Shown here piece by piece: positions 425 to 31,162 of a DNA stretch of 32,000 nucleotides. Positions within the stretch are counted from its first letter, which is position 1; each line of letters starts with the position of its first letter. The position numbers and the translations under genes are program-made. The notes beneath the pieces were generated by a model that saw only the letters and a program-made list of their open reading frames with translations, searched no databases and was not told the origin of the DNA. This DNA is from Candidatus Saccharimonadota bacterium. GTDB lineage: Bacteria > Patescibacteriota > Gracilibacteria > UBA4473. The stretch is from contig JAUIFI010000001.1 of the NCBI GenBank assembly GCA_030429505.1, positions 510,001 to 542,000 of the forward strand, read 5' to 3'.

Positions 425-453
425 TTGCTTTTTTCTTTTTACTGTGGTAAAAT
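425..453 (+). promoter_or_regulatory. candidate sigma70-type promoter with extended -10 for the 1,935-aa gene
   Basis: TTGCTT (425-430), 17-nt spacer, TG at 445-446, TAAAAT (448-453). ATG 479 lies about 20 nt past the predicted start site. Sequence match only. Confidence 0.4.
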
Positions 454-478
454 AGAGAGATTTTTTCAGCAAACATCT

Positions 479-6286: not shown

Positions 6287-6336
6287 GCAAAAACAGAGAA
6301 AGAAGAAAAATAAAAAAACAAAAATTCTTTCATCAG

Positions 6337-6368
6337 AAAAAACCAGGGAAAACAAACCTGGTTTTTTT
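6337..6368 (+). terminator. rho-independent terminator after the 1,935-aa gene
   Basis: Stem AACCAGG (6341-6347) / CCTGGTT (6357-6363), extendable with A:T pairs. 9-nt loop, then a run of seven T (6362-6368). Lies 51 nt after the TAG. Confidence 0.7.
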
Positions 6369-6414
6369 ATAATCCCTCTTTATAAAAAAACAAAGACTCT
6401 ATAAATATAAAAAT

Positions 6415-6458
6415 ATGTACATCTTAAAAAAATGTATGATATTTTTTAACATACATTT
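6415..6458. promoter_or_regulatory. palindromic ATGTAYAT-type elements upstream of the DUF11-giant promoter (possible operator or activator site)
   Basis: Perfect palindrome ATGTACAT (6415-6422). 9-bp inverted repeat AAATGTATG (6430-6438) / CATACATTT (6450-6458) with an 11-nt AT loop. All share the ATGTA core. Confidence 0.3.
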
Positions 6459-6486
6459 TATCTACAATTTTTTCTTTGGAAAAAAT

Positions 6487-6516
6487 TTTACAACCTCAAA
6501 CTCCCTACGCTACAAT
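6487..6516 (+). promoter_or_regulatory. candidate sigma70-type promoter for the DUF11-giant / coupling-protein operon
   Basis: TTTACA (6487-6492), 18-nt spacer, TACAAT (6511-6516). ATG 6552 is about 28 nt downstream of the expected start site. Confidence 0.4.
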
Positions 6517-6551
6517 TGACAGGAAAAAATGAACTTTTATCGATTCTCTCT

Positions 6552-12500: not shown

Positions 12501-13298
12501 TTTCTAGAAAGTAAAGGAGGCGGAAACATTGGCTTTGATTTTCAAAACAGTGCGGAGAAGAATTTATTTGGAAGCACAAAAAACATTACCGACACACTAG
12601 GAGACGTAATCGCAGATAAAACACAAACATCCGGTCAAGTATTCCAAACTCAAATTGATAGCCGATTTGATAACGCCAAAAAAGGAAATTTTGACATTAT
12701 CGGAGATTTTACTTCTCGAGACAAAGCACAAAAAGACGCCTTCTTCTTTAACCTTAAAAACAATCTCGATCGCACCCAAGGATACCAACCTCCACCTGCC
12801 AGAAACGCATGGAATTTTGTAAATAGTAATAGTTTTTATACTACCTTTGATAACTCTGGCATTTATTTTCTCGAAAACGGAAACGCTGAGATATCCGGCA
12901 CACTCAATATGGATGGACAAAGTAAAACCTTTATCATTGAAAATGGAGATTTATTGATCAACCAAAACTTTGAAGTCGAAAATGGATTCATTGCCTTCAT
13001 TGTTAGGAATGGAGACCTTATCATCAAAGATAACGTCAACCAAATCCAAGGATTATTTTTGGTAGAAGAAGGAGCTATTAAATCTGAATCTGATACCCCC
13101 ATTTTTGATACACAATTAATAGTATCTGGAGCTCTCATTGGAGACGCCACTGACCTAATCGGCGATAGAAGGTATATCGGTAACCCAAGCTTACTAGAAC
13201 CGAGCATCAAAATCATATCTGATTTGAGACTAATAGAAAAAACCCCACCCGCTCTGGAACAATTTTTAGGAAAAAATTGGCGACAAGAAGTTCGATAA
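6552..13298 (+). CDS. giant secreted surface protein with nine DUF11-type (conserved repeat domain) modules, a Gly/Ser linker, a Cys-rich domain and a beta-helix-like C-terminus (2,248 aa)
   Basis: Track ORF 6516..13298. ATG 6552 gives a classical signal peptide, MKKFLSTLFVFSSILLIQTALA/GKN. Repeats carry the DUF11 signature (…GDTITYTITVxNxG…V.V.D.LP.g..f.sv…) and each is closed by xxCNxA…xxC(H). Stop TAA 13296-13298. No LPXTG and no SLH. Confidence 0.9.
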   Translation: MKKFLSTLFVFSSILLIQTALAGKNDFSHTSLTNSPDCPEGPEVVRQSGDPFFEEDGDCRMAINRTLFPDGLDWNEFNRYIDSSSASSFRANAVPGNRFGSNPNWQDERDFFTAKKEHCADLDCERVFDHTITDIAQDDDIALHIYINNNARINEGYTAKNVSLTLDWNNPKEVKATINAGEIGYDNQGEGLWDRPNPIYDIVSLRFVEDDAQIQLALNQITQPNTHNEAGKTATWNLGDIESKSPGGINQIIVNFDVVAPKLEIIKTSDVDDGATVLVGDTITYTVQVENTGTMDLNDVILSDQIGAGQEYVNNSATNGATYDPDTNTVELLVPSLTIGDTASFSFQVTVTEIPEPANEVCNQAHGFDNNNEDPTITSSSEKICYDVEERPIELDLLEINKRAVTPSAGSIIKAGDTITYEITVTNPNDTDIPNVTLEDFLPDGVDLVNYTPVSCDESLPFIICDINPLRANETFTLRITVKVKDNIEAFFNGDLPDKLCNGSTVWFNEDLFPDASNNFLQSDQVCHPLQIETQAPLVNKTAEDENGQKLEDGDNIKPGDTITYIITVENPNEFQDLQDVTIEDVIPNELSIQSVTPNTNCNINGQTVSCTFATITAGSTVTIRVTTVVRDNAQAGEICNTADYQNNSNTLINPINNTGTNSTSPSSIFQNISRFLGINSFLDQIFNPGNIEDITAPNNNQNFTEDISPITATEGNNIICLEIQEEGEPELEITKTAEDENGATIQEGDEISAGQTISYVLTVENTGAEDERNVIVEDILPNEVEFKSVTPTPECLFDGRQITCTFDVIPAGDTVEIRIITTVQNNAQEGEFCNTSIVTMQGRQAPIDSDENCLRVGEGEEAEITKAANPTEGTEVESGNTITYTIRYENPNEFNVEFVSFTDELPNGLDFENVNTRVIDSNGDEVPKVDNEGNPDLTPYCVGDEGTDIVTCSFRFIPRQGFVEIIITATVNNDAEDEVCNIAEFSTFFPSPIGPIIENTNEVCHPLSGSPDGGPFPSFAKSSDPEEEDENGEPIMLQVGQEIEYTIRLDNTTDNPIEDVTITDQLPEFLEIDESSFLEIESPPGKPFSCTLDQPTRTINCQFEDENEVLDPDEEVVIIITGTISTNADPNEQICNEADLLYVGELVSTTNEVCHNILDPEVFPSVSKVTDPETEDNEGNPILVSEGDTITYQIIIDNTTNAPLEDIIITDALQDGLEFDGFTDRPENDNCEYNNNTNTITCTFPEPLPNNPTGNDPDSQLIIEFTATVTADAADQVCNQADVEFDGNRLIRSNTSCHEVDAEDTITVTKTANPSDAEALQPGAQVIYTINFNNPTNQDVQTIEFTDELPEGILFQSVEATNLDADGNVIPPANPPVCSEDNNSITCDIDSIVAGGSLDIVITAVVEDDILDREINEVCNTARFLALTPPLDITTNQGNELCHNINEGGGNENLITKSSEPEAGSQISAGSDVFFTITINNITDEILSEQEVDSVFIEDIIPEGFTFVSVDNDTECVGLDTDDPADEEIDVVQCTFDNLIPGQEETIIIHVTVDEDATGEICNTALIRYVNGQGEIVEETSNAVCLDGGGGNGTGGSGSGNSSGRTSSGSAPSHPTIGTCVQNWKGNQGDTGDRWQCVARYPKPPTALYEDPYYDAYVRCSSGGGSDTDISLRAKCLVEWAYLNGYEICGPAQPGYTSGTEGWFSFEDYLSANPGIIVPYVGSQDADQIFRNSQSTGQEVVNYQCGDLSVNIPCDSLGAQSYPPSISSQSDIIKTIDKDTIARGETVTYDIEANLKLDIPNPSNRTNFQFEILDGIIKIYDYTVPNASGNIWYRKGIENSTVWSGGSNWNNQSWNIDGGWSAALKAPSGGVVFERPLTSSEENLLENGVPQNFNISYEMDSELAIDSDVAQLQNVAFAVVEIGYIYSYDVIDPVDGTITTIRSSLNEYTYSFGTPNADICTATDIKSLSTKGALSTVNVVRPFLESKGGGNIGFDFQNSAEKNLFGSTKNITDTLGDVIADKTQTSGQVFQTQIDSRFDNAKKGNFDIIGDFTSRDKAQKDAFFFNLKNNLDRTQGYQPPPARNAWNFVNSNSFYTTFDNSGIYFLENGNAEISGTLNMDGQSKTFIIENGDLLINQNFEVENGFIAFIVRNGDLIIKDNVNQIQGLFLVEEGAIKSESDTPIFDTQLIVSGALIGDATDLIGDRRYIGNPSLLEPSIKIISDLRLIEKTPPALEQFLGKNWRQEVR
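7335..11315 (+). repeat. array of nine tandem DUF11-type domain repeats (about 125-145 aa each) inside the 2,248-aa gene
   Basis: Repeat starts at residues (numbered from 6516) 274 LEIIKTSD, 408 LLEINKRA, 548 PLVNKTAEDENG, 743 LEITKTAEDENG, 874 AEITKAANP, 1030 PSFAKSSDPEEEDENG, 1176 PSVSKVTDPETEDNEG, 1317 TITVTKTANP, 1466 LITKSSEP. Divergent at nucleotide level. A degenerate tenth copy occurs at ~11865-12000 (DIIKTIDKDTIARGETVTYDIE). Confidence 0.8.
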
Positions 13299-13300
13299 CA

Positions 13301-16300
13301 ATGAAATTTATAGAACCAGTAATCAATATCCTCAAAACTCATGTCCTATCAAGCTCTCTTTGGTCATGGGTTTTTTGGGGAATTATCGCACTCTTGGTTA
13401 TTTATATCTTTCGATGGATTCCGCGGTATATGTTTAGACGATTTGAATTCTTAGGAGATAGATTTGTCCATCTTCGAGTCAAACTTCCTCGAAAAGACTC
13501 TAAACTCGATACTGAAAAAAGAACAGAAAAAGATTTTCATGAACAAATTGCAAAAGCCGAACAATTTTTCCGCTCTCTCTCTGAAACAAGAGATCTCAAT
13601 CTCTACAATATGATCTTCAAGCGCATGCTATGGAAAAAACCACAAATATCCTTTGAATTACAATTTGAAAATCAAAAACTCTGGTTCACCATCGTATGCG
13701 ACAAATACTATCAACGCATTATCCAAAAACAAGTTACTTCTTTTTATGAATCTGCCGAGATTGAAATTCTAGAACCCAAGGAAAGATTTGAACTCAAACC
13801 CAAAGGTAATCACGTCAATGGATTCTATATGCACACTACAAAAGCTCCATGGTTTCCTGTCCAAACCTATAAAGACATTGAAGACGATCCACTCAACACC
13901 CTCGCAAACTCGTTCTCAAAACTCACCCCTGAAGAAACTGGCGCCATTCAAATGGTCATTCATCCAGCATCTAAAAGATGGCAACGAACAGCCACGGAAG
14001 TTGGAACACAAATGTTTAAAGGAAAAGGGAAGGACTCAAAAGGCGTTAGCATTCCTATCATTGGCCCCATTCTCCGTATACTTTGGTGGCCTATTCGAGT
14101 GTTATTCAAAGGCTATGATCCAGCCACAGACAGTATGGGAACGAATCAACCCGGAGCCTCTGGAGGAGACTCATTCGTCAGAATGCTACAAACCGAAGAA
14201 GAGATAGCCAAATCGATTGGAGATAAAGCCAACAGAGCTGGCTTCGAAACAGTCATTCGCGTGTTCGCCAGCTCACCAAACAGAAGTCGAGTTCAGGAAA
14301 TTTTAGACGGAATTTTTGTCTCATTTAATGTATTTGAAGGGAACGGTACCAATAGATTCGAAAATAGACGAATTATTCCTCTAAACATAATAAATTCTCC
14401 GTGGATTTTTCATAATTACCGTTACCGCTTGCTAGCATTTTTTGAAAAAAAATCCCTCCTCGCCACCAACGAACTCGCCACTATATTCCACTTTCCGGAT
14501 GCCAGATACAACAAAATTCCCACCATTAAATGGATGGACTATAAAGTCCTCCCTCCCCCTATCAATCTTCCCAACGAAGGTATTGTACTTGGAAATTCTG
14601 TCTATCGAGGCATCACCAAGCCAGTACAAATGCTAAGAGAAGATAGAACTCGTCATACCTACATGATCGGAAAGTCTGGAAGTGGTAAATCTGTACTTCT
14701 CTGGAATATGGCCCGCCAAGACGTAGCCAATGGTGAAGGAATTTGCCTTATTGATCCTCATGGAGACCTTGTAGAAGATGTCCTCGCCTGTACTCCAAAA
14801 GACAGAGCAAAAGATGTCATTGTCTTTGATCCAGGAGATAAAGAACGTCCCATGGGTTTGAATCTTCTTGAAACTAAAAACCCAGATGAACGAGATCGAG
14901 CTTCCCTCGATGCCATGGAAATTTTCATTAAACTCTTTGGAAATGAAATATTTGGTCCTCGTATCCAACATTACTTTCGAAACGGATGTCTGACCCTTAT
15001 GGCCGATGAACAAGAAGGAGCCACTCTTATCGATATTCCTCGACTTTTTATCGATGATGACTTTCAACGCTATAAAGTCTCAAAAGTCAAAAATCCCGTC
15101 GTACGAGCTTTCTGGGAAAACGAAATGGCAAATACAGGACAAAGAGAAAAACAAGAAATGATTCCCTACTTCACTTCAAAATTTGGTCCTTTTGTGACTA
15201 ATACCATAATGAGAAATATCATCGGACAAACAAAATCTGCCTTTAATGTCAGAGAAGTTATGGACAGTGGAAAAGTACTTCTCATCAATCTTTCCAAAGG
15301 AAAAATCGGAGACATCAACGCACAACTTCTCGGAATGATCGTCGTATCCAAAATTAATATGGCCGCCATGGGCAGAGCCGATATGCCTCAAGAGAAAAGA
15401 AAAGATTTCTATCTCTATGTCGACGAATTTCAAAATTTTGCTACCGATACATTTGCCTCCATTTTGTCTGAAGCCAGAAAATATCGACTCAATCTCATTA
15501 TGGCTCACCAATATATCGCCCAGCTTACAGAATCTCCCGGTGGTATCTCCATTGGACAAAAAGACAGTAAGATTCGAGACGCAGTATTTGGAAATGTGGG
15601 AACCATGATGAGCTTTAAAGTCGGAGCTGAAGATGGAGAATATCTAGAAAAAGAATACGCTCCAGATCTATCTCAACAAGACATCATCGGCATTGCTAAC
15701 TACAAAGCCTACATCAGACTCAATATACAAAACACCACCTCCCGACCATTCTCTATGGAAACCTTGTACGACCCAAGCCTTAAAAACGAAAAAGTAGCCG
15801 AAGTCGTAAAAAAATACTCTCGGATGAAATACGGACGAAAAAAAGAATTTGTCGATGCCGAAATCGAAGCACGCATGGGAATGAACGTCATTTCCAGTAT
15901 CAAAAAGAATGCTCAAGCAGACCCGACTGTTCACAACGACCTTCTCAAAGAAGACGCAGCACCAAATGACATAGAAGCCATTCAAAAAGCAGGAATTACC
16001 GATATACCAGCTGCTGCAAAAAAAGACGCTCCTCCGGGTAGCATCGCCACCATACAACCACCAGCATCTCCTGCTCCTCAAGAAACAACAAACACTCCTA
16101 TGACACAACCTGGGCGAACTCAACCAACACCACCGGCACCACCTATCGTTCCCCCAACCACCACACAACCATCAAAAATAGAAACATCTACTCTAACTGT
16201 AGAAACATCACCAGCATCCCCTGCTCCCCAAACAGCACAACCTGTTACCACTTCAATAGCGACACCAGAATCCTCTCCCCCACCGACTCAATCACCTGAA

Positions 16301-16411
16301 AATTCGGCAACACAAAACACTACAACAACTCCAAACATAGTAGCTGACGAACCTACTGCTCCCGCACCTTCTGAGCAACCTCTATCAGAATCAAATTCTA
16401 AAACGGAATAA
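13301..16411 (+). CDS. type IV secretion coupling protein-like P-loop ATPase (VirD4/TraG/TraD, TrwB_AAD_bind + TraG-D_C type) with N-terminal TM helix and Pro/Thr-rich tail
   Basis: ATG 13301 lies 2 nt after the upstream TAA. N-terminal TM helix LWSWVFWGIIALLVIYIF. Walker A HTYMIGKSGSGKSVLL (GKSGSGKS = 14669-14692) followed by ICLIDPHGDL. Walker B FYLYVDEFQNF (15407-15439) and ARKYRLNLIMAHQYIAQL. This motif order is typical of T4SS coupling proteins. Stop TAA 16409-16411. Confidence 0.8.
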   Translation: MKFIEPVINILKTHVLSSSLWSWVFWGIIALLVIYIFRWIPRYMFRRFEFLGDRFVHLRVKLPRKDSKLDTEKRTEKDFHEQIAKAEQFFRSLSETRDLNLYNMIFKRMLWKKPQISFELQFENQKLWFTIVCDKYYQRIIQKQVTSFYESAEIEILEPKERFELKPKGNHVNGFYMHTTKAPWFPVQTYKDIEDDPLNTLANSFSKLTPEETGAIQMVIHPASKRWQRTATEVGTQMFKGKGKDSKGVSIPIIGPILRILWWPIRVLFKGYDPATDSMGTNQPGASGGDSFVRMLQTEEEIAKSIGDKANRAGFETVIRVFASSPNRSRVQEILDGIFVSFNVFEGNGTNRFENRRIIPLNIINSPWIFHNYRYRLLAFFEKKSLLATNELATIFHFPDARYNKIPTIKWMDYKVLPPPINLPNEGIVLGNSVYRGITKPVQMLREDRTRHTYMIGKSGSGKSVLLWNMARQDVANGEGICLIDPHGDLVEDVLACTPKDRAKDVIVFDPGDKERPMGLNLLETKNPDERDRASLDAMEIFIKLFGNEIFGPRIQHYFRNGCLTLMADEQEGATLIDIPRLFIDDDFQRYKVSKVKNPVVRAFWENEMANTGQREKQEMIPYFTSKFGPFVTNTIMRNIIGQTKSAFNVREVMDSGKVLLINLSKGKIGDINAQLLGMIVVSKINMAAMGRADMPQEKRKDFYLYVDEFQNFATDTFASILSEARKYRLNLIMAHQYIAQLTESPGGISIGQKDSKIRDAVFGNVGTMMSFKVGAEDGEYLEKEYAPDLSQQDIIGIANYKAYIRLNIQNTTSRPFSMETLYDPSLKNEKVAEVVKKYSRMKYGRKKEFVDAEIEARMGMNVISSIKKNAQADPTVHNDLLKEDAAPNDIEAIQKAGITDIPAAAKKDAPPGSIATIQPPASPAPQETTNTPMTQPGRTQPTPPAPPIVPPTTTQPSKIETSTLTVETSPASPAPQTAQPVTTSIATPESSPPPTQSPENSATQNTTTTPNIVADEPTAPAPSEQPLSESNSKTE
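16027..16408 (+). other. Pro/Thr/Ala/Gln-rich low-complexity C-terminal tail of the coupling-protein-like ATPase
   Basis: …PPGSIATIQPPASPAPQETTNTPMTQPGRTQPTPPAPPIVPPTTTQPS…TSPASPAPQTAQPVTT…. The 21-nt PASPAPQ unit occurs twice (16061-16081 and 16211-16231, 2 mismatches). Confidence 0.8.
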
Positions 16412-16481: not shown

Positions 16482-18905
16482 TTAATCGAAAGAAAAAATT
16501 AACTTCAACGCCTGAACCCGAGTCAAAGCTTCATGAGGCGCAAATTTTCCGTTTCCTATACCCTGAATCATCCCTCTCCGGAAAGCCTCGTTAATCCAAG
16601 GTTTTTCCCACCCTCGTGAGTCAGAAAATACAGCCTCATCATCATTATCTTCATGAGGAAAAAATCCGTCACTTGCCAACAAAATCTTCACCGCCTCAGC
16701 ACGAGTCAGTCCATTATCAGGACGAAAGAGACGTATACCATCTTCTTGTACATATCCTCCAACAATACCTTTTTGACGCAACTTCGTTACAGCATTAAAA
16801 AATTCTGAATCACGTCCTGTATCAGCAAAAAAATCATCATTTGTCGTATAAGGAATACTCGCACCAAACAAATGTTTCCAAATCATCTGTGCAAACTCGC
16901 CACGAGAAAGAGGTTCATCTGGTAAAAGGTTACCTTCCTCATCAGGTTCAAGTAATCCTTCTTTTATCCCTTGGACTAAATATTGTTGCCCCCAATGATC
17001 ACGATAATCATCAATAAAAAATACAATATCTTCAATTTGAAATTCCTCAGACGCACCTTTTTTCACAGAAACACAAGGAAACCCACTACAAAAATCAACC
17101 TCTTCTCCTACCGAGAAATATCGCCCCACTCGATCTGAAAAACGAAGCCAAAACTCTCGTTGCGCTTCAGAAAAAGGTGCTATCTCAATCAAAGTATCCT
17201 CACGCATAATTTCACCAAAGTTAAAAGGCTGCCATATTTGAGAAGAGTTTTGATAAAAAGGAATGCCGTTTATCTTTTGAACATCAGCTGAAAAAAAACC
17301 ATGTGAACGCTCTAAATCCATAATAACACGTGCCAAATCATGAGAGTCTTTATTTTCTTCTAAACGAGATCGTAATGTTTGACGATCTGTCCATTCGTCA
17401 AAAAACGATGTCTTTATCCCAAAAATACGCCCCACCGCCAAAATATCATCCACTCTACTATCTGAAAAATTACGCTCTCGAAGTAAATGGGCAATTTGCC
17501 TAGCTCCCCAAACACTCGGCAAAAACTGAGCTACACTTGAAAAAGGCTCAGTAGTAATTTCAGTTCTTCCTATCCAAAAAAGTGAATGCGGTGAAAAAGA
17601 CGATTTAAATTCATCTGGCAACACATCTGACCCCACTTCAAGCTCAGGATCACGAGAGATAGCAGGACGCCAATAATTCCACAAATCTAACCAATCATCC
17701 TTCTCTATCAAAGACAAAGCTTCACGAAAAAGTCGTTGAGAAAAACCTCCTGACAAACGAGATGATAAATCCAACGCAGCAGAAATATTATCCGAAAAAT
17801 ACATAGTAATCATCGGAGCATTTATTTTTTCAGTAGGAATAAAGACGTCATTATCAGTGAACAAAAAAAGTATTCTATTTTTTTCCGGAACAGACCATAG
17901 ATCTTTCACAAAATCAAAAGCTTGCGATAAATTTGTCTTTCCCACAGGCTGAGTTGTGGAAAAAGAGTGGAAAAATTTCTTTCGAAACGAAAACGTATTA
18001 TCCTCAAAGCTATCATTATACTCGTGAATTCCATCATCAAAAAAAACAACTCGAATTTGAACCTCTTCCCCCAAATGTTCAAACAAAAAACGAAGCCATT
18101 CTTCTGTCCTCTTCCAAGCTCCACCCAAAAGTGAACCAGATCGATCAATCAAGAAAAGAACCTCCTTCATTTCTTTCCGCTCTGGAATTTCAAAAAAAGA
18201 AGCTCGATATGTTTTTCCTAAAAAAGGAAATTGCAATGTTGGACTTTCTTTTGAAGACCAGAAAAAAGCTATATTTTGTGAAGGCACAAAATCATCTTCT
18301 TCTACAAACCAGATCAAACGTTTGTCTTGTCGATCTATCAGAGCATCAGTCGAAAAAGGCACCAACCAATGACGAATCATATGAGCGCTTGAAATAGACA
18401 AAGACATTTCAAAATGCTCAGCCGCAATACCATCATCTAAAAAAATTTCTCCCAAAAACCAATCATCCATAAAATCTAAACGCGCCTCATACGAGAGTTT
18501 TGTCTTTAAAGTTTTACCAGGAGTAAAAACAAGCGGTTGGGATTGAAATAATGTTGGAAAACCATATCCTCCCAACCGAAAAAAACGATGGTCTTGATGC
18601 TTTTGAGCTTGGTCAAACAACAACTCCAATCGATCCTGACCTGTCAAAGTGTCAAACAAACGCGCTTGTGAATCAACAAAAAAACGAACATCTTGAGCAT
18701 TTGGTCGTAACGGATACCACAACACTACATCCTGATTTTGATCAGAATTATTTCGAATCGTCTCATGAATCTCAATGAGCAAACGTTCATCCTCTGTCAC
18801 CTCGATGACCACTCTTTGATTGATACGCTCCAAACCATCACCGACAAAAAAAGCTTGCGTCGTCCCACTCAAAAATAACAGTCCCAATAGTAATAATCTT
18901 CTCAT
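16482..18905 (-). CDS. secreted VIT-like / von Willebrand factor A (complete MIDAS) protein with three C-terminal SLH cell-wall-binding domains
   Basis: ATG 18905 gives the signal peptide MRRLLLLGLLFLSGTTQA (the track starts 3 codons earlier at a TTG). MIDAS: LFLIDRSGS (DRSGS = 18132-18146), GKTNL, LFTDND. The N-terminal VVLWYPLRPNAQDVRFFVD region is VIT-like. C-terminal SLH-type repeats LSRGEFAQMIWKHLF, LTRAEAVKILLAS, LTRVQALKLIFSF (~16482-17000). Stop TAA. Confidence 0.8.
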   Translation of the reverse strand: MRRLLLLGLLFLSGTTQAFFVGDGLERINQRVVIEVTEDERLLIEIHETIRNNSDQNQDVVLWYPLRPNAQDVRFFVDSQARLFDTLTGQDRLELLFDQAQKHQDHRFFRLGGYGFPTLFQSQPLVFTPGKTLKTKLSYEARLDFMDDWFLGEIFLDDGIAAEHFEMSLSISSAHMIRHWLVPFSTDALIDRQDKRLIWFVEEDDFVPSQNIAFFWSSKESPTLQFPFLGKTYRASFFEIPERKEMKEVLFLIDRSGSLLGGAWKRTEEWLRFLFEHLGEEVQIRVVFFDDGIHEYNDSFEDNTFSFRKKFFHSFSTTQPVGKTNLSQAFDFVKDLWSVPEKNRILFLFTDNDVFIPTEKINAPMITMYFSDNISAALDLSSRLSGGFSQRLFREALSLIEKDDWLDLWNYWRPAISRDPELEVGSDVLPDEFKSSFSPHSLFWIGRTEITTEPFSSVAQFLPSVWGARQIAHLLRERNFSDSRVDDILAVGRIFGIKTSFFDEWTDRQTLRSRLEENKDSHDLARVIMDLERSHGFFSADVQKINGIPFYQNSSQIWQPFNFGEIMREDTLIEIAPFSEAQREFWLRFSDRVGRYFSVGEEVDFCSGFPCVSVKKGASEEFQIEDIVFFIDDYRDHWGQQYLVQGIKEGLLEPDEEGNLLPDEPLSRGEFAQMIWKHLFGASIPYTTNDDFFADTGRDSEFFNAVTKLRQKGIVGGYVQEDGIRLFRPDNGLTRAEAVKILLASDGFFPHEDNDDEAVFSDSRGWEKPWINEAFRRGMIQGIGNGKFAPHEALTRVQALKLIFSFD

Positions 18906-18988
18906 TTCGAACAAAATTATAGTTCAAAAATAAAAAAAAGAAAGAGAGAAAAATCAATCAAAAAAATCTCTTTTCTAAAACCAAGCAA

Positions 18989-19488: not shown

Positions 19489-20616
19489 TTACCTACCCCA
19501 ATAAATAGTGGTATCTATTTCTGAGTCATTGATTTCATACTTCTTCTTCCTATAAAAAAGTTTCAACAGTTTTTTCGCAATATACCCCACCGCCACCAGA
19601 ATAAAAAAGTACACCAATCCATTCCAAGTAAAAGACGGTAATTCTTCTGTGAAAAGTCCCAAAATAGTTCCTCCCACACCCATCGAAGTAATAATCGTCA
19701 AACTTTCCACAGATTGGCTGGTTCCACGATTCTGAATACCCGTAAAAACCTCAATCGCCGAATTAACATAGTTTTCTGTCATTGTCCAAACCTCCTTCAC
19801 ATAACTCAAAGTATTTTGCATCGTGTCATACTTAAACTCAAACGCATCACCCAATTCACGGAATGATATTTCTTTTTTCAAAATACTTGGACGCGTATGA
19901 AGATACAACCCCATCTGGTTGATACGAGTTCCAATCAAATTAATCGTTTTTTTATAATCCTCCAAACGATTCAGAAACACTGCCGCCTCTGCAGCATAAA
20001 TCTTCTTTTATTCCTTCACTTCGGCAATCCGTTCCCAGATAAACCGATGAAGGTTGAGATAGCGATGAATTTGTCCTTTAAATTCACGAATAAAAACCCG
20101 CTCCTCAATCAATCGCTCGATCATCCGATCGCTTTCCGATAAGTTATTGATCAAATAAAGCTTATCTCCTCGATAAATCTCAAACGATTTTTTATGAAAT
20201 TCAAATGTCTGTGACTCCTCAAACTCAGCTAAAAGATCCTTTACCTCCTTGGGCTTCGCCTTCTGCAGAACCACAAAATAAGGATAAATCGTCTCCACAT
20301 TCACCAGTTCTTTCGGAATCGGAGCTCCTAAACTAAACAAATACTGTAACACCGGAGAAAGCTTTTCCTTATTATAAGAACGCAATACTCCAATATCATC
20401 CTTGATCTTTGCAGCTGATCGACTCAAAAGAATCAAGCCATCCTCAAAAAGCTTTATTCGAATCCCATTGCAGGTAATCATCTCCACATATTCGATCGAA
20501 TCCACCTTGAGTTCAAACGAATCCAGATCAAGATTCGCATGAAGAGACGCTAGTTTCTTTTTATTCAGATCCAAAGGACTTGTTCGCGTATCTAAAAAAT
20601 CATACACCTCAAACAA
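19489..20616 (-). pseudogene. CorA-superfamily-like 2-TM cation channel gene, split by one in-frame TAA and carrying GLF in place of the GMN motif
   Basis: Track ORFs 20008..20616 and 19489..19980 are in the same frame, separated by TAA (20010-20008) plus 9 sense codons (KKIYAAEAA). Combined length is 375 codons. The C-terminus VESLTIITSMGVGGTILGLFTEELPSF…LVYFFILVAVGYIAKKLLKLFYRKKKY matches the CorA TM1-(GMN)F-xxMPE-TM2-KRKK layout. The only available start is TTG 20616; there is no upstream ATG. Confidence 0.55.
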
Positions 20617-20678
20617 ATGCAGACCTGTCCGCTGAAACCATCCACCAATAGAAACTGTTTAAACCTTCATGAGTCACA

Positions 20679-21635
20679 CTAAATAAGAGCAAATATCTTC
20701 GCAATGAAAAAACCATAAAACAAAATCAAAAACCATCCTTCCCATTTCGTAATCTCTTTTTCTTGAGTCATAAAAAAGTACAAAAGCGTCGCCGCGATCA
20801 TGACCGGAAAACTGAACATCAAAACTTCTTGAGAAATACTCAAACTTCCGAAAAAAGCTGGCACCCCCATAACCACAAAAGAATTAAAAATATTCGAACC
20901 CAAGACATTCCCTACCGCCATCTCCGCGTTTCCTTGTTTGGCGGCTGAGATCGTTACCATCAATTCAGGCAAAGACGTTCCAAGCGCCACCGCACTCATA
21001 GCAATAATCTCTGTCCCAATATTGAGGATCGCAGAAAGCTCAATAATCGAATCAATCGTAAACTTTGCGCCTAAAAAGATAAAAACACAACTCGCCAATA
21101 AAACAAAAATTGTCTTCCAGGACAAACTCTCTCGCTTTGTTTTTACAGCTTTCTTCTGAGTCTGCTGAGATTCTAAATCTTTCTGAGAAGCAGTCGTGTA
21201 CCACAGATAAATCACCATCCCCAGCAATAAAATAATCCCCTCCCGCCACGTAAAAACTCCATCCCAGATCGTAAACAACAAAAGCATTGCTGATCCCACC
21301 AAAATCGGTAAATCCACATGAATCAATTCATAACTAATCTCCAATTTTTTCCCCAAAATAGCCGCAATCCCCAAGATCAAAAATATATTCGCAATATTCG
21401 AACCAATCACATTCCCCGCCACAATCTCCGAAGATCATTGCACCACTGCCAAAATCGAAGACACCAATTCTGGCAAAGACGTCCCCAGAGCCACAATCGT
21501 CACTCCGATAATAAACGCCGGAATCCCAAAAAACTTCCCTATCTTCTCCGCCGACTGAATAAAATAATCAGAAGCCTTTACCAATACCCCCAAACTGATA
21601 ACAAAAATGGAGACTTGAATCAAAATGTCCATCAT
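20679..21635 (-). CDS. YrbG-type Ca2+/Na+ (CaCA family) antiporter, interrupted by a single in-frame TGA (recoded Gly or recent nonsense mutation)
   Basis: Track ORFs 21435..21635 and 20679..21422 share a frame, separated by TGA (21437-21435) plus 4 codons. Read through, the product is 318 aa. Both alpha-repeats are present: GTSLPELVSSILAVVQ*SSEIVAGNVIGSNIANI and GTSLPELMVTISAAKQGNAEMAVGNVLGSNIFNS. About 10 hydrophobic helices. Start ATGATG 21635, stop TAG 20681-20679. Confidence 0.75.
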
Positions 21636-21830: not shown

Positions 21831-21905
21831 TGGAGCGCGTGACGGGAATCGAACCCGTATCACCGGCTTGGAAGGCCGGGGTAATAGCCTTTATACGACA
21901 CGCGC
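21831..21905 (-). tRNA. tRNA-Gly (anticodon UCC), CCA encoded
   Basis: Minus-strand sequence GCGCGTG-TC-GTA…TAC-CC-CCGGC-CTTCCAA-GCCGG-TGAT-ACGGG-TTCGATT-CCCGT-CACGCGC-T-CCA. It has a 7-bp acceptor stem, a 5-bp anticodon stem with loop CU-UCC-AA, and a canonical GTTCGATTC T-arm. Confidence 0.93.
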
Positions 21906-21965: not shown

Positions 21966-24170
21966 TTATTCAATGACAATAGTCTTTGTCCTCCGAGAAA
22001 CCAAACCTTTCAAATTCGTGATCTTGAGAGAAGCTTTGTATTCTCCTGGAAGAGAATAAATATGCGTCGGACGAACTTCATCTGATGTTTTTCCATCGCC
22101 AAAATCCCACTGATACCGAACAATAGTTCCCGTAGATTCTGATGGATCAAAAGAATATTGAAGTGAATTATCTCTGTCAGCAGAAAATTCAAATTCAGCC
22201 TGTAAAGACTTGGCTCGAACCACCACCGTCTCCTCAGTCTCAGCAGAATCTCCCGTAGAAGTCAAAACCCGTAAACGCACCGGAAAAGTCCCCACCGAAT
22301 CAAACTCATACGATACTTTCGCATCATAATTAAAAGGATCTTCATTAGGGAACTCCCATACATACGTCACGATGTCTCCATCATCTGTACGAGACGCTGA
22401 ACCATCAAATTCTACAAAAAGAGGAACTGTTCCCGTCAACTGACTCGCTGAAATCTTAGCCTGCGTTCCCACTGGATCTACTACTACTTGCTTAATACTA
22501 GAATACTCTCGCTCTAGAGAATCAACAATCGTAAGACGAGCCATATACGTACCAGCCTCTCTATACATATGGCGAGCTGAGGGAGAAAAATCATCAGTCC
22601 GACCATCATCCTCAAAATCCCACTTCCACTCAATCGGATTTTGAATCGTAGACCGAGTCGCATCAAAATTCACCTCAAAAGGCGCAAAACCACGCAATAC
22701 TTCACCTTTATTTGAAGGAGGTTGTGTTCGAATATCTACCACCGCCCCCAATTGATTATCTGTTACCACAATAGTCCGTTTTGCACGATGACGTTCTCCA
22801 TTCTCATTTTCGACCGTCAGAGAGACTTCGTATTCTCCTGGCTTTCGAAAATCACGCTTAATCGTCCGTCCTGCTACCGGCTCTTTTTCACCTTCGACAA
22901 ACCATTCATAAGAAATAATATCTCCAAATCGACTAAAAGACTGTCCACCATCAAGCGTCACCTCAAAAGGCATCACCCCTTCAAATCCTTGATCGGAAAA
23001 AATCTCTGCCACAATATTTTGATTGGAGTCTCCTACTACAATCGTTTTTTCCACAGTAGACACATCATTACTCGATCCTGTAACTCGCAAGCGCACAAGA
23101 AAATTTCCCACCTGAGAAAAAGTTTTACTCGCTACAGATTGATCTTCCCCAAAAACTTCATACTCTCCATCACCGTCTAAATCCCATTCATAAAAAACAA
23201 TACTTCCATCTGGATCCCGAGATCCAGTCGCACTAAACTCAACCGACAAAGGAGAAGGTCCAGACTCTTTGTCCGCAGTAATATTTGCAATCACAGACTC
23301 ATTCAGAATAATAACATCGCGAGTAACCGTAAATGATTTTTCTTCATCTGCAGACGGAGAAAAATAATCCACTGTTACCGCCACATTATACCGACCGTTA
23401 TTAGCCCCTTTATCTAAAAAACGGTACACCACACTCGTCCCCGCAGCATCAAAAACACCATCACCGTCAAAATCCCAACTAATCTGACGAATTAAATCTT
23501 GATCAATTTTTTTATACAAACCTTCAGTAATATCAAACTCTACCCTTATCGGAGCCGTTAAGCCAATAGTATTATCAGGAATGGTAACAATCATAGAATC
23601 ATCAAACTGATTCGCCGATGGATCAATACTCGCATTAGTAATCAAAAAGAAAAACATCAACCACAAAGCAAAAATACCAAGAAAGATAGAAAAATGGAGA
23701 CCGGAACGAATCAAAAGGTTTCTTCGATTCGCCGCGTTTTTCTCAATGATAATCCACTGAAAAACTTTTACTAAAGTAGAAATAAGAAAAATAAGCGCCA
23801 AAAATCCAAAAATGGAGTGAGTCAAAACCAAAAGAGTTTCTTTTAAATCTCCAGTACCAATGCCTAGAATTTTGAATAAAGGATTATCAATATTACCTCC
23901 CAAAAGCCCCCATAAAAGCACAGCATAAAAAAGCACAACTAAACCTCCCCCTAAAATCAAAAACCATTTCAACAAAGCACTATTACTCGTGGTTCTCGAA
24001 TCACCAGAACGCTCTGAAGATACAAGAACAGAATCCTGATCATCCGGCATAGAAGAAAGAACTTCCCGTTTTTCCGAAGACTTCTCTTCAACCTCAGGAG
24101 TCCCTTCACCTAATTCAGGAGTTATATTTTCTGCCTCAAATGAATCATTTTTATTTGTATTTTCGTCCAT
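21966..24170 (-). CDS. membrane-anchored PKD-repeat surface protein (acidic N-terminus, 3 TM helices, about 5-6 PKD domains)
   Basis: ATG 24170, stop TAA 21968-21966. TM helices WFLILGGGLVVLFYAVLLWGLLGG, LLVLTHSIFGFLALIFLISTLV, LHFSIFLGIFALWLMFFFLITNA. PKD signatures VEFSATGSRDPDGSIVFYEWDLDGDGEYE, ISYEWFVEGE, WKWDFEDDGRTD, YVWEFPNEDP, YQWDFGDGKTSDEVRPTHIYSLPGEYKASLKITN. Confidence 0.85.
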   Translation of the reverse strand: MDENTNKNDSFEAENITPELGEGTPEVEEKSSEKREVLSSMPDDQDSVLVSSERSGDSRTTSNSALLKWFLILGGGLVVLFYAVLLWGLLGGNIDNPLFKILGIGTGDLKETLLVLTHSIFGFLALIFLISTLVKVFQWIIIEKNAANRRNLLIRSGLHFSIFLGIFALWLMFFFLITNASIDPSANQFDDSMIVTIPDNTIGLTAPIRVEFDITEGLYKKIDQDLIRQISWDFDGDGVFDAAGTSVVYRFLDKGANNGRYNVAVTVDYFSPSADEEKSFTVTRDVIILNESVIANITADKESGPSPLSVEFSATGSRDPDGSIVFYEWDLDGDGEYEVFGEDQSVASKTFSQVGNFLVRLRVTGSSNDVSTVEKTIVVGDSNQNIVAEIFSDQGFEGVMPFEVTLDGGQSFSRFGDIISYEWFVEGEKEPVAGRTIKRDFRKPGEYEVSLTVENENGERHRAKRTIVVTDNQLGAVVDIRTQPPSNKGEVLRGFAPFEVNFDATRSTIQNPIEWKWDFEDDGRTDDFSPSARHMYREAGTYMARLTIVDSLEREYSSIKQVVVDPVGTQAKISASQLTGTVPLFVEFDGSASRTDDGDIVTYVWEFPNEDPFNYDAKVSYEFDSVGTFPVRLRVLTSTGDSAETEETVVVRAKSLQAEFEFSADRDNSLQYSFDPSESTGTIVRYQWDFGDGKTSDEVRPTHIYSLPGEYKASLKITNLKGLVSRRTKTIVIE

Positions 24171-24197
24171 AACGATGACCTTATTTTTTCACTAGAT

Positions 24198-24227
24198 ATA
24201 ATGACCGATAACCAAAGCTATTGTCAA
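24198..24227 (-). promoter_or_regulatory. candidate internal sigma70-type promoter for the 734-aa PKD gene
   Basis: Minus strand: TTGACA (24227-24222), 18-nt spacer, CATTAT (24203-24198). ATG 24170 follows, with a weak AAGG about 10 nt upstream. Confidence 0.35.
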
Positions 24228-24243
24228 TGTTATTTCTCCAGAG

Positions 24244-27200
24244 TTAATCCCCTTCTTCCTGAGAAGTTACCCGAAATTCAGTCACATAAGTCAAGGTCTT
24301 TTCTCCATCAAATACATCTACCTCCACCACATGGAGTCCTTCTGAGCTCGGAATATGAAGGATAAAGAATCCAGCATCAGAACGTTCGGTCGTCTGTCCC
24401 AATGGATCAATAATCCGCCAATTATAACGCAAAGTAGTATGACTTTCTTTTTCTGGTTTTACAGACAAGAGGAATTTTTCACCTAAATTCGATTGGGCGG
24501 GTTTCACAAAAAGGTTTTCCGTATGATGAGTCTCCAAAGGAAATAGTTCTTTTTCTCCAAACTGGCACGTAACCGTTCTCTGTCCATCAAATGAACACTC
24601 TTCCGGAGTCACAGATTGAAACTGAACATGATCAGGTAAAATACTTGAAATCACAAATGTAGAATTATCCTTCTTAGGGTTTTTTGCTCGAATTGTATAC
24701 GTAATTCTATCTCCCGGGAAAATCTTCTGCCCCTCTTTCAAATCTTCCAAAACCTTGCTCACCCGCAGCACACTACTCCGTGGCTCAAGCACAAGACAAA
24801 AAGTAGATTCTCCATCAGAAAATCGAACTGGTTTTAAAATCTTAGAAATGTTACAAAACCGACCTTTAGGCGCATCTTGCCGCACCAAAGCTACAATCTT
24901 GATCGGGACACCTTCATCATCCAAAATAGATGTTTTTGAAGAGGAAGAGGAAGAAAACGATTTTGGCGGAGAAAGACTCCATTTTCCGTCAACAACTTCC
25001 GGCTGAGATTGCTCTAAAGTCTCAGTAGCCTGAAATATCACAAACTGAGTAAAATTCATACGAGTACCATCCACAGTAGTAAAAACGACAGACTCAGATG
25101 ATTGACGTGGTACCTCAAGGTCATTTGCCCGTCCAGGAGATGAAGGATTAGAAACAACAGCCAAAGGAGCTACTCCATCTAAGACAGAAAATTGAGCCGC
25201 TGGTGAATCGATACTATATTTTTCATTTCGAACCGTCACAAAAATCGAATGCTGACCAGGTATTTTAGCCTCATAAGAAAAAGAAGTAGTTCTATTTTTA
25301 ACCGTTTCAATTTCTCCATCGGGTCGTTGTACCGTCCAATCAAACTGAACCCCTTCTTGACGAGCACTCCCTACTCGAATAGTAGAAACAAAGATATCTC
25401 CCACATTCCCCTCAGAAGGTGTAACTTGAATACGAGACACGTTAGGCAAAGCATCCTCCTCATTGACTACCTCCAAAGTATGTTGACGAGAATTGACCGT
25501 ATTCAAACCGTCCGTCACTGTCACCCAAAAAGTGTAGATACCAAGAACATCAGGCGTGTAAGACAGTATTCCAATCTCAGTCTCTTCTTTTTGCTCTTCA
25601 CCACTAGGACCCGCTATATGCCAGATATAACTCAATGGATCATCCTCTTTATCTGACACTTCAGCAAATAAACGAATCGATTGCTCCAAAATTCCTTGTC
25701 CGTAAGGAGAAACCTGAAAACGTTTAATAAAAGGAGGGTCATTTTTAACCGTACGCTGAGTAACCAAACGCACCGAAAACTTCTTCTCATCAGATAAAGT
25801 ACGACTAAAAATACCTCCTTTATCCTCAATCATTAATTTTACAAAAGAAATCTTATCAAGAACCAAATTAGAAAGAATTTTATCAGGAGCAATTTCTTCG
25901 CCATTCAAAAGCCAAGTTTCCTCAAGTTTATTATCCGGTGATACATTTCCTTCTCGATCCATAGATACAGAAGAAAATAAAACCTCATCATCAGGCAAAA
26001 ATTCGATCACATCCCCTACCCACTGCTCTTCTCCATTTACCATCACTTTAGGCAATGCCGCCGGCTCTCCATTCGTACGAACGGTTATCGTTTTCGTAAC
26101 CGAATTTGTATTCCCCGATCTATCAGAAACCGTGAGAGTAACCTCTTTATCCCCAGGAGTCTGGTAGACATGCTCCACTCGTTGCCCAGTTTTTTCCAAA
26201 GGATTTTGTGTCTCAGGACTGTCTGACGCAAAAGACCAAGTAAAGGAAATCGCATTCGGACTCACTCCTTGAAATGCAAAAGATTCTCCAACTACAAAAA
26301 GCTGGTCCGTATCAAAATTCACCGGCAGAACTTTATCAACGACCCTTTCTTCAACTTTTCGAATTCGAAACGCCTTTTCATCAGTAGAACGAACACCAGT
26401 CGCCCCTTTCTCTTTCACAACCAATCGAATCGTCGCCGTCTGCTCAAGCTTGAGAGCCTCTACAATCCGATCAATCTCAATCTCAGTTCCATTGAGATAC
26501 CATATCTCTTCCAAGTTATTATTCGGAGAAACCTTTCCGGAACGATCCACCGATTGAGACAAAAATACCACCGCATCCTTTTCCGTAAACTCAATAATAT
26601 CACCGATCCACTGCTCCTTTCCATTGACACGTACTACCGGTAAAGCGGTCAAAGGACCATCATTTTCTACCTCAATAGTCTTGGTCACAGAATTCGTATT
26701 TCCATCTTTATCTTCCACCGTGAGAGTCACAGATTTTTCTCCTACAGAGTTATACACATGCCGCACCACTTCACCTTCCTTTTCTTCAATCTCACCATCA
26801 TCCATCTCAAATTCCCACACGTATCGAACAGCTCCTACGCTTACTCCTCGCAATTGAAAAGGTCTGTGAATGACAAAATTTTGATTTGTATCAAAATTCA
26901 CCGGCAACTCCACCACCTTTTCATTAACCGTAACCGCAAGAGACTCCGTCACCTCATCAATTCCATCAGTCACCGTCACCAAAACAGTATACGTTCCAGG
27001 TTCAAGAAATGTGTAATGTAAAATACTTCGCTTTGGAAAGACTTCATCAATCCCATCAATACTCCATTCATACGAAAGTCTATCTCCATCTTCATCTTCT
27101 GTCACCGCCTGAAACGAAAACAATGTCTCAGTATCTCCAGCATTCGAACCATTCAAAGGTACAACTTCTACCTTCGGTGGATGATTGATACTATGATTAT

Positions 27201-29172
27201 TAACATAATATTCATCTCTATTAGTCCGAGTCGTCAAAGCTCCATCATTATCCTTCACCGTCACTCGAACCGAATAATTATGTTCTCCCAAAAACTGTGT
27301 CAGATTAAAAAATACTTCAGGAAATTCAGAGATCTGAACATCAGCTGTACGATTTTGCTCCATTATCTCAAATTTATACTGCACAATTTCTCCATCCGGG
27401 TCAGTAGCTCCCTGGACTTCCACCGGAAAATTCACCGCAAATTCAGGACCTTCTGTCGGATAAATAATCTGAGAAGCTTCAAGCAAAGGTGCAACATTCT
27501 TCACATGTATTGAAAAACGATCTGTATCACTGATATTCGGATTTCCCGGACGAGATACTTTCAATACAACTTCATGATGTCCGACATTCGTGAGTAATCT
27601 AGGAATACTCTCAGGTCCAGATACAATCCTACGATTCACAGACCATGTTTCCGTGAGACTCTCACTCGATCCGGCATTACCCTGTTCATCAATAGACTCA
27701 GACGAAAACTGCAGCCCCGAAATAGGTCGCTCAATATCCAACGGTGGTAAAACTTCCGAACCATTGAGCGTAACTTTCATACGAGCCAAAGGCAAATCAT
27801 CTTCTCGCACATAGACCATCTTTGAAACTGTATCAGAACGAATCTCGCCATCATCAGAAGGCTCCGAATCTGTAACTGTCAATGTCACTTTATGAGCCCC
27901 TTTCTCTGAGAAAAAAGCACGAATAATCGGAAAAGAAAGATCATCAAGAACTGTCGCAGCCTCCGAAAATTCCCATTTATAAGTAAAAGAATCATCTTGA
28001 GGTTGGGCCCGAAAAGAAAATGAATCTCCAATTCCCACAAAAGCAGGTACACGAAAATCAGCTTTTAAATCTTTTTCTTCCTCTTCTTCTTTTTTAGGAT
28101 CCCCTCTCACAGATAAAACCTGGGTAGTCGTATTCCTAATACCTAAATTTGACTGGACAGTAAGAGTGATCTCATACTGCCCCCCCGCTCCAAAAGAAGC
28201 AACAAATACAGGTCCCTTTCCCTCAACAAAACACTCATTCTTAGCGACATCACCAATTCCGGCAGATTCCACCCCCAAAACCTTACAAGTCCAAGTATAG
28301 TCCACCACTGATCCAATAACAGCACGAGACATTCCAGCATCAAAAGTAACCTTTTGGTTAGTCAAAGGACGTCCTGGATTCATTCGAAAAACAGCCTTTA
28401 CCCCCCCCACCATAACCGTCTTCGAAGCTCGAATCAGACCATCATCAGTAGAAGCTACTACATTAATTCTATAAGCCTTTTCTTGTCCATATCGATGTTC
28501 AACTGGCCCCTCAGAACTTCGAATACCATCACCAAAATCCCACAAAATTTCATTATAATTCGTATTTAGATTAAATGTTACCCCCGATAAAGCCGTCTCA
28601 AAAGGAATCGCAAAGCCATTTCCAAAATCTACCACACTCTCCCCCTCTGCTGTAATAAGCCCGGGAGAAATTTCCGACAAATCATCTTCCTCGGAATCAC
28701 CACCCGGATCGCCATAATCATACTCAGCCCCACTCCGATCATCATCCCCAGAACCAGCACTTTGAATCAAAGTATTAACCAATGCAAAAGACACCAACAC
28801 TACCAAAATACCAATACACGCATACAAAATAATTTTCTTTGCCTTTTCTGTATCTTCTCCTCCAACAATTATATACAAATAACCAGCATAAATAATTGCA
28901 ACTACTCCAGCCAATCCCAAAAAAGACAAAGTGAAGTTTAGTACATTCAAAATAAATTGACGTAATGAGGTATTATCACCAATCTGATTAAACTCTCCTG
29001 GGTGAGGTAATGAAAAAGAACCATCAGGCACCGGTCCCTGACCAAAAAGATCATCCACAACATTATTCACTGCAGTATCTAAAGGAGACAATAAATCTTG
29101 CGCTTGAACAAACTGAGTGCCCAAAAACAAAAATATCAAAGCGAAAATAAATTTTTTCATAACACTACTCAT
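24244..29172 (-). CDS. giant surface protein: signal peptide + T4SS-pilin-like (VirB2/TrbC-type) two-helix hairpin + about 1,500 aa of PKD/Ig-like repeats with one DUF11-type module
   Basis: ATG 29172 overlaps the upstream TAG by 8 nt (ATGAGTAG). An alternative ATG 29160 gives MKKFIFALIFLFLGTQFVQA/QD. Hairpin LRQFILNVLNFTLSFLGLAGVVAIIYAGYLYIIVGGEDTEKAKKIILYACIGILVVLVSFALVNTLIQ. PKD-like motifs ILWDFGDGIRSSEGPVEHRYG, YKWEFSEA, YEWSIDGIDE, YVWEFEMDDGE, FTWSFASDS, YIWHIAGPSGE, FDWTVQRPDGE, YNWRIIDPLGQ. DUF11-like PGDRITYTIRAKNPKKD…SSILPDHVQFQSVTPEEC. Stop TAA 24246-24244. Confidence 0.9.
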   Translation of the reverse strand: MSSVMKKFIFALIFLFLGTQFVQAQDLLSPLDTAVNNVVDDLFGQGPVPDGSFSLPHPGEFNQIGDNTSLRQFILNVLNFTLSFLGLAGVVAIIYAGYLYIIVGGEDTEKAKKIILYACIGILVVLVSFALVNTLIQSAGSGDDDRSGAEYDYGDPGGDSEEDDLSEISPGLITAEGESVVDFGNGFAIPFETALSGVTFNLNTNYNEILWDFGDGIRSSEGPVEHRYGQEKAYRINVVASTDDGLIRASKTVMVGGVKAVFRMNPGRPLTNQKVTFDAGMSRAVIGSVVDYTWTCKVLGVESAGIGDVAKNECFVEGKGPVFVASFGAGGQYEITLTVQSNLGIRNTTTQVLSVRGDPKKEEEEEKDLKADFRVPAFVGIGDSFSFRAQPQDDSFTYKWEFSEAATVLDDLSFPIIRAFFSEKGAHKVTLTVTDSEPSDDGEIRSDTVSKMVYVREDDLPLARMKVTLNGSEVLPPLDIERPISGLQFSSESIDEQGNAGSSESLTETWSVNRRIVSGPESIPRLLTNVGHHEVVLKVSRPGNPNISDTDRFSIHVKNVAPLLEASQIIYPTEGPEFAVNFPVEVQGATDPDGEIVQYKFEIMEQNRTADVQISEFPEVFFNLTQFLGEHNYSVRVTVKDNDGALTTRTNRDEYYVNNHSINHPPKVEVVPLNGSNAGDTETLFSFQAVTEDEDGDRLSYEWSIDGIDEVFPKRSILHYTFLEPGTYTVLVTVTDGIDEVTESLAVTVNEKVVELPVNFDTNQNFVIHRPFQLRGVSVGAVRYVWEFEMDDGEIEEKEGEVVRHVYNSVGEKSVTLTVEDKDGNTNSVTKTIEVENDGPLTALPVVRVNGKEQWIGDIIEFTEKDAVVFLSQSVDRSGKVSPNNNLEEIWYLNGTEIEIDRIVEALKLEQTATIRLVVKEKGATGVRSTDEKAFRIRKVEERVVDKVLPVNFDTDQLFVVGESFAFQGVSPNAISFTWSFASDSPETQNPLEKTGQRVEHVYQTPGDKEVTLTVSDRSGNTNSVTKTITVRTNGEPAALPKVMVNGEEQWVGDVIEFLPDDEVLFSSVSMDREGNVSPDNKLEETWLLNGEEIAPDKILSNLVLDKISFVKLMIEDKGGIFSRTLSDEKKFSVRLVTQRTVKNDPPFIKRFQVSPYGQGILEQSIRLFAEVSDKEDDPLSYIWHIAGPSGEEQKEETEIGILSYTPDVLGIYTFWVTVTDGLNTVNSRQHTLEVVNEEDALPNVSRIQVTPSEGNVGDIFVSTIRVGSARQEGVQFDWTVQRPDGEIETVKNRTTSFSYEAKIPGQHSIFVTVRNEKYSIDSPAAQFSVLDGVAPLAVVSNPSSPGRANDLEVPRQSSESVVFTTVDGTRMNFTQFVIFQATETLEQSQPEVVDGKWSLSPPKSFSSSSSSKTSILDDEGVPIKIVALVRQDAPKGRFCNISKILKPVRFSDGESTFCLVLEPRSSVLRVSKVLEDLKEGQKIFPGDRITYTIRAKNPKKDNSTFVISSILPDHVQFQSVTPEECSFDGQRTVTCQFGEKELFPLETHHTENLFVKPAQSNLGEKFLLSVKPEKESHTTLRYNWRIIDPLGQTTERSDAGFFILHIPSSEGLHVVEVDVFDGEKTLTYVTEFRVTSQEEGD
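25759..26916 (-). repeat. tandem duplication of a 193-aa (579-nt) two-domain unit inside the 1,642-aa gene
   Basis: Copy 1 VVELPVNFDTNQNF…GNTNSVTKTIEVENDGPLTALPVVRVNGKEQWIGDIIEF… and copy 2 DKVLPVNFDTDQLF…GNTNSVTKTITVRTNGEPAALPKVMVNGEEQWVGDVIEF…. The nucleotide anchor ATCAAAATTCACCGGCA occurs at 26890 and 26311. Confidence 0.8.
28762..28971 (-). other. T4SS-pilin-like two-TM hairpin module of the 1,642-aa protein
   Basis: Residues 68-137: hydrophobic helix, then the GGEDTEKAKK loop, then a second hydrophobic helix. This is the layout and loop motif of VirB2/TrbC-type and CPR/Gram-positive T4SS pilins. Assigned by recollection of the family, not by a search. Confidence 0.6.
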
Positions 29173-31078: not shown

Positions 31079-31162
31079 TCAACGCTTCAAAAAGAAAGAA
31101 AAAATACACACCGCACATTGTCCCACGTTTCCACCAAAAGAGTCAAACACCACAAAGAACAC

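Follow-up and report, generated by a model that had tools for sequence, protein, structure and literature searches.

Premature stop codons in adjoining antiporter and CorA-like genes point to a probable recent pseudogenisation of a cation-transport locus in a Peribacteria-related genome

Introduction

The solved exchanger NCX_Mj and the YrbG-type antiporters of the CaCA superfamily (TIGR00367, PF01699) are the closest described counterparts of the first gene considered here, which resembles them in its two Na_Ca_ex domains, its pair of alpha-repeat signatures and its ~318 amino acids. In NCX_Mj, the Glu residue of the GTSLPE motif is established as ion-coordinating. The gene described here differs from these antiporters in that its frame is broken at codon 67 and its read-through product falls below the equivalog cutoff for E. 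coli YrbG. The gene next to it encodes a protein whose predicted model resembles the CorA/Mrs2 channels of the MIT superfamily, with an N-terminal alpha/beta domain, long stalk helices and C-terminal membrane helices.

The codon that breaks the antiporter frame is TGA, which is a routine glycine codon in genetic code 25. According to a recent review, the reassignment of UGA to glycine is confined to the Gracilibacteria(BD1-5)/Absconditabacteria lineage, GTDB JAEDAM01 (PMC13293708), and a CPR-wide study likewise assigned code 25 to Gracilibacteria(BD1-5) and Absconditabacteria alone, with the standard bacterial code elsewhere (PMC9297842). For an organism that does use code 25, 97 of 820 peptides matched only the translation with UGA as glycine (PMC4032931). 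The two code-25 phyla have the Peregrinibacteria as their sister group (PMC8080830).

A third point of comparison is offered by the nonsense pseudogenes of reduced or symbiotic bacterial genomes. These share with the present locus single-base stop gains, genes that are intact in relatives, hits within what is here probably one transcription unit, and a host genome of ~1 Mb. In this study, we analysed a stretch of 32,000 nucleotides (hereafter the window) and compared its interrupted genes with their counterparts in related genomes.

Results

An antiporter gene interrupted by one in-frame TGA

A Ca2+/Na+ antiporter gene of the CaCA superfamily, TIGR00367 type, occupies 20679..21635 on the minus strand and comprises 318 codons with one interruption. 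As the first-pass annotation had described, its N-terminal ORF (21435..21635, minus strand, 66 amino acids) and C-terminal ORF (20679..21422, minus strand, 247 amino acids) lie in one frame and are separated by a TGA and four sense codons. The TGA is codon 67 (21435..21437, read 21437-21435 on the minus strand, in the context ...GTG GTG CAA TGA TCT TCG GAG ATT GTG GCG GGG AAT...) and falls in the loop that joins the GTSLPE and GNxxGSN halves of alpha-repeat 1. With the TGA at this codon, no uninterrupted frame carries all 10 transmembrane segments in one chain.

Each of the two pieces matches Pfam Na_Ca_ex separately. On the one hand, the 318-amino-acid read-through product matches PF01699 in two stretches (E=2e-61), passes the NCBIfam model TIGR00367 'calcium/sodium antiporter' (233 bits vs a cutoff of 179.65), aligns end to end with NCX_Mj (E=6e-37) and retains the GTSLPE...GNxxGSN signature in both alpha-repeats. 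These results bear out the earlier description of a 318-amino-acid read-through exchanger with its hallmarks in place, and its two Na_Ca_ex domains, both repeats and score above the family cutoff make it a member of the CaCA antiporters. On the other hand, it does not reach the threshold set for the E. coli YrbG equivalog (NF008005/PRK10734; 177.9 bits vs 432). The intact orthologue P0001, from locus L004, is 79% identical to it.

The TGA is already present in the source assembly, because the database product P0036, which has 202 amino acids and is 100% identical to the window, was called there in truncated form. The contig that carries this shortened gene call measures 1,023,206 bp, and the call begins at an internal ATG. 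Among the 5.8 billion proteins searched, none besides this truncated self-match is more than 79% identical to the antiporter, and the same search, made also for the allele at the TGA site, returned no intact copy from the same species.

At 60-65% identity, more distant homologues occur both among CPR bacteria and in DPANN or other archaea (Woesearchaeota, Nanoarchaeota, Methanosarcinales/Methermicoccus), a distribution that suggests inter-domain transfer of this antiporter subfamily. The source records label several of the archaeal copies 'conjugal transfer protein TraR', a name at odds with the assignment of these copies to PF01699 (Na_Ca_ex).

Across the 13 long ORFs of the window (10,213 codons, stop codons included), the in-frame TGA count is one, and out-of-frame TGAs are plentiful in the same ORFs. 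The first-pass claim that this is the only in-frame TGA therefore stands, but that annotation missed other premature stops nearby, namely two TAA codons in the adjoining gene. In total, the antiporter gene and its neighbour carry three premature stops, one TGA and two TAA, and each of the two genes is one unbroken ORF in the syntenic locus L004. Elsewhere in the window, the other ~9,500 codons include no premature stop.

The residue at the interrupted position

Among 116 close full-length homologues, the column of the TGA is occupied by Gly in 59, Asn in 40, Asp in 16 and His in 1. The closest orthologue (L004) has Asp there, encoded by GAC, and NCX_Mj has His, while more distant orthologues (L005-L008) have Gly encoded by GGA or GGG. 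An ungapped alignment of the two internal repeats puts a Gly codon of repeat 2, GGA, opposite the TGA. That part of the earlier observation holds, but the position that had been called a consensus Gly is Gly in 51% of the homologues, and we read the aligned column as a variable G/N/D turn position and not as an invariant Gly.

We also asked how often a new TGA would fall on glycine in this gene. GGA accounts for 8 of the 23 antiporter codons that lie one step from TGA when the hit codon is counted, and for 7 of 22 without it. The chance that a TGA-creating substitution falls on Gly is thus about one in three, and because GGA makes up this share of the susceptible codons, the coincidence of the TGA with Gly is unremarkable and expected by chance. 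The ancestral codon at this site was likely GGA, since TGA is one transversion away from GGA and three changes away from GAC; the Asp codon of L004 was rejected as the ancestor on the same count.

Two TAA codons in the adjoining CorA-like gene

The next gene (19489..20670, minus strand) starts 8 nt past the antiporter stop, runs from an ATG at 20670 to a TAA at 19489, and falls within a family of ~391 amino acids that is conserved across CPR. The two genes are probably co-transcribed. The first premature TAA is codon 4 (20659..20661, minus strand), where the window reads MKV-stop-TVSIGGWF and L004 reads MKIKNVSIGGWF, with Lys (AAA) at the site. The second is codon 221 (20008..20010, minus strand), where the window reads EVKE-stop-KKIY and L004 reads KVKEQKRVY, with Gln (CAA) at the site; the family column at this codon is R57/K51/Q7. 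The L004 counterpart lies directly after the exchanger as a single ORF of 390 amino acids (L004:3961-5133), and the window gene aligns to it at about 72% identity, gapless save for a 3-codon C-terminal tail.

The family has more than 2,000 CPR matches, with >50% identity over many Patescibacteria classes, and the best 120 of these >2,000 homologues have lengths of 362-429 amino acids, nearly all being ~390. Neither Pfam nor NCBIfam holds a model that matches it. Its invariant residues G9, G10, W11, R14 and T15 lie downstream of the codon-4 TAA.

The window copy (19489-19503, minus strand) ends three codons past the family norm, in I-Y-W-G-R-stop where the family has I-x-stop. The usual stop position is TGG in the window, one step from TGA or TAG, and the three-codon extension may represent a stop-loss change.

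The antiporter and the CorA-like gene are adjacent in the window and L004 only. They stand apart in L005/L006, L011/L012 and L013, and no gene of ~390 amino acids is annotated beside the exchanger in L014-L016. A conserved operon of the two genes was accordingly rejected, given their separation in three other contig contexts, and a functional link between them is only suggestive because their adjacency is limited to these two loci.

Predicted fold of the CorA-like protein

An AF2 model of the CorA-like protein, built from 28 homologues (pLDDT 79, pTM 0.73), predicts an N-terminal alpha/beta domain, very long helices and C-terminal membrane helices. In a Foldseek search of the PDB with this model, the top 43 matches (E <= 0.001) were all CorA-type Mg2+ channels (CorA, CmaX, Mrs2), with E values down to 3e-5 and TM-scores of just about 0.3. 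In contrast to the CorA/Mrs2 channels, the protein gave no match to Pfam CorA (PF01544) at E <= 1, and the family has a conserved SMGVG motif in place of the GMN tripeptide, which is absent. We use the term CorA-like for the predicted fold only, and the function of the protein is putative. Based on the model, the family may be a CPR-typical, uncharacterised family of CorA-like cation channels. By this fold, both damaged genes plausibly encode cation transporters.

Related genomes and the genetic code

The loci nearest to the window come from uncultured MAGs of Candidatus Peribacteria, a class-level group within Peregrinibacteriota (L004 79%, L006 67%, L005 66%), and L004 has the same gene order as the window over three ORFs. 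The locus thus groups by identity and gene order with Peribacteria and not with BD1-5/SR1 (GTDB JAEDAM01). Crude ORF calling in these loci gave TGA as the terminator of 6 of 38 ORFs (~16%), namely 1 of 13 in L004, 4 of 19 in L005 and 1 of 6 in L006. Some of these terminators coincide with the end of a Pfam domain, as with AIRS_C (profile positions 1-154 of 156), and one directly abuts a second stop in a TGA-TAA tandem.

In the window, the 13 visible terminators (those of the long ORFs and of an edge ORF at 2-286) are TAA or TAG, with TGA at 0 of 13, which is not significant at the rate of the relatives (P about 0.1). TAA is the main terminator, ending 8 of 12 long ORFs when the TGA-interrupted fragment is left out. 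The sole tRNA of the window lies upstream of the antiporter and is a tRNA-Gly (21831-21905, minus strand; ARAGORN; Rfam tRNA 62.9 bits). Its anticodon is UCC, as had been noted before, and it is an ordinary reader of GGA/GGG, not a UCA suppressor. A tblastn search with an approximate E. coli RF2 query gave no match in any of the fetched loci, and no release-factor homologue was found in the window.

These data bear on the alternative that UGA is decoded as glycine in this Peribacteria-related lineage, either as code 25 or as an early stage of low usage, so that the full-length antiporter would be expressed. Such decoding would suit a TGA that stands opposite Gly in many homologues and opposite GGA in repeat 2, in an antiporter with no other damage, and it would also suit the lack of TGA terminators in the window and a host from the sister lineage of the code-25 phyla; yet standard usage would give that lack with P about 0.1, the site is Asp in the closest orthologue, and the only tRNA-Gly seen in the window is UCC. 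Common use of UGA at Gly columns, which distinguishes code 25, was not observed here: one in-frame TGA in 10,213 codons contrasts with 734 ordinary Gly (GGN) codons in the window. Moreover, the two in-frame TAA codons of the adjoining gene are left unexplained by glycine decoding, and the closest relatives terminate genes at TGA. The first-pass annotation had offered UGA-as-Gly as one of two options; with Peribacteria relatives ending genes at TGA and about one TGA-creating change in three falling on Gly by chance, we found it unsupported.

Sequence constraint and a neutral test

We compared deviations at strongly conserved columns between the window genes and their intact sisters. The exchanger has 9 in the window vs 7 in the sister, and the CorA-like gene has 24 vs 23. 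There is no excess of missense changes at conserved columns and no frameshift in either gene.

For a neutral test, all single-base changes in both genes were enumerated and then evaluated with a negative-binomial model. The probability of three or fewer conserved-column missense changes before the third nonsense change was 0.02-0.03, or 0.09-0.13 when one nonsense change was discounted for ascertainment. Naive expected counts had suggested that long neutral decay is strongly rejected; this conclusion was withdrawn, since P = 0.02-0.13 under the negative-binomial model amounts to mild tension only.

Surroundings of the locus

The window is dominated by genes for giant surface-type proteins of 1,968, 2,260 and 1,642 amino acids with DUF11, PKD and Big_9 repeats (380-16411 on the plus strand; 21966-31966 on the minus strand). 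T4SS-pilin-like N-termini are present at 24244-29172 and 31163-31966 on the minus strand, a VirD4/TraG-like coupling protein at 13277-16411 on the plus strand, and an SLH+VWA protein at 16482-18914. From these domain assignments, the regions 380-16411 and 21966-31966 look like a CPR-style type IV secretion/adhesion island.

Discussion

In our view, the two genes very probably form a cation-transport locus that recently became a pair of pseudogenes through nonsense mutations, in a genome of about 1 Mb that is related to Peribacteria and uses the standard code. The TGA of the antiporter most likely arose by a plain GGA-to-TGA nonsense change and does not look like the mark of a new genetic code. 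The decay reading of this TGA follows from the two premature TAA codons in the next gene, and the nonsense reading is further supported because the corresponding codon is GGA or GGG in more distant orthologues and the conserved residues of the antiporter are intact. Of the two options first proposed for the TGA, the very recent GGA-to-TGA mutation is thus the one favoured by these observations, and the other is opposed by the ratio of standard Gly codons to TGA.

According to this proposal, the host would be a relative of Candidatus Peribacteria (Peregrinibacteria) that uses the standard code, as its relatives appear to do. The antiporter would have been inactivated by the change of GGA to TGA at codon 67, and the CorA-like gene struck at codon 4, most likely by AAA to TAA, and at codon 221, most likely by CAA to TAA; these ancestral codons are our reconstruction. 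With UGA acting as a terminator, the antiporter gene would yield a 66-amino-acid product that lacks TM3-TM10, and the antiporter would be non-functional. Polarity, or a loss of need for the module, may later have relaxed selection on the downstream gene, if the events occurred in this order.

The inactivation is judged to be recent because neither gene has an excess of missense changes or frameshifts. In this respect, the locus differs from the nonsense pseudogenes of reduced or symbiotic genomes, since all three lesions here are nonsense changes, accompanied by neither indels nor measurable missense decay; therefore, either the genes were inactivated very recently or the sample is somewhat unusual (P about 0.02-0.1). 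Three nonsense codons with zero frameshifts speak against our proposal, as does the lack of TGA among the 13 window terminators (P about 0.1). We consider the excess of nonsense changes to be a mild tension that is compatible with a very recent inactivation and gives artefact or read-through a small chance. In addition, the loss of a member of the CorA-like family is somewhat unexpected, as this family is highly conserved across CPR.

It is improbable, in our judgement, that the stops arose as errors of sequencing, assembly or consensus, or stem from minor alleles in a mixed population, and that the real genes are intact. The source genome is of the uncultured type and is the lone genome of its species for comparison, and both genes are otherwise perfectly conserved, all of which would agree with such an error. 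However, three stop-creating substitutions within about 7% of the coding sequence of the window, next to unbroken ORFs of 1,000-2,260 codons elsewhere, are unlike random error. No homopolymer or indel errors were seen, and comparison of the sequences around the three stop sites showed no methylation or error motif common to them.

Slightly less probable still is that the genes are functional despite their stops, through leaky or programmed read-through, insertion of selenocysteine, or split polypeptides that reassemble, for example after re-initiation at GTG 21422. This possibility draws on constraint that is not detectably relaxed and on a ratio of nonsense to conserved-column missense changes that is mildly improbable under neutral decay. 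For re-initiation in particular, a GTG lies four codons past the TGA with a GGAG before it; however, this GGAG is just 3 nt from GTG 21422 and is part of the conserved Ser-Glu codons, and by the NCX_Mj alignment a product from this GTG would lack TM1-2, including the ion-coordinating Glu of GTSLPE. Read-through of the second gene would have to act on the main terminator of the window, and TAA is the least leaky stop codon. It would also have to start at codon 4, upstream of the invariant N-terminal residues. Selenocysteine insertion was rejected: the 66 nt from the TGA onward form no stable or SECIS-like hairpin when compared with shuffles (z=+0.89), the tRNA is the only Rfam element in the window, and the TGA column contains G, N, D or H and never Cys or Sec in the 116 homologues.

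The reading of UGA as glycine fares worst, and we hold it to be highly improbable, as the window uses UGA once per ~10,000 codons. We assign a similarly very low probability to an early or intermediate stage of reassignment, in which genes would have lost TGA as a terminator and the codon would, on rare occasions, be read as Gly, with the antiporter TGA among the first to be captured and the TAA codons of the neighbour being coincidental. If this were true, a genome that lacks both RF2 and TGA terminators would reveal an intermediate stage on the way to code 25.

In summary, recent nonsense pseudogenisation accounts best for the three stops, and the case is most likely routine gene decay in a small CPR-type genome. 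For annotation, it means that the loci 20679-21635 and 19489-20670 should be flagged as pseudogenes. Our study also indicates caution in the search for recoding, since a lone in-frame TGA at a Gly-rich column of a GGA-rich gene is a chance expectation and should not be taken for a changed code.
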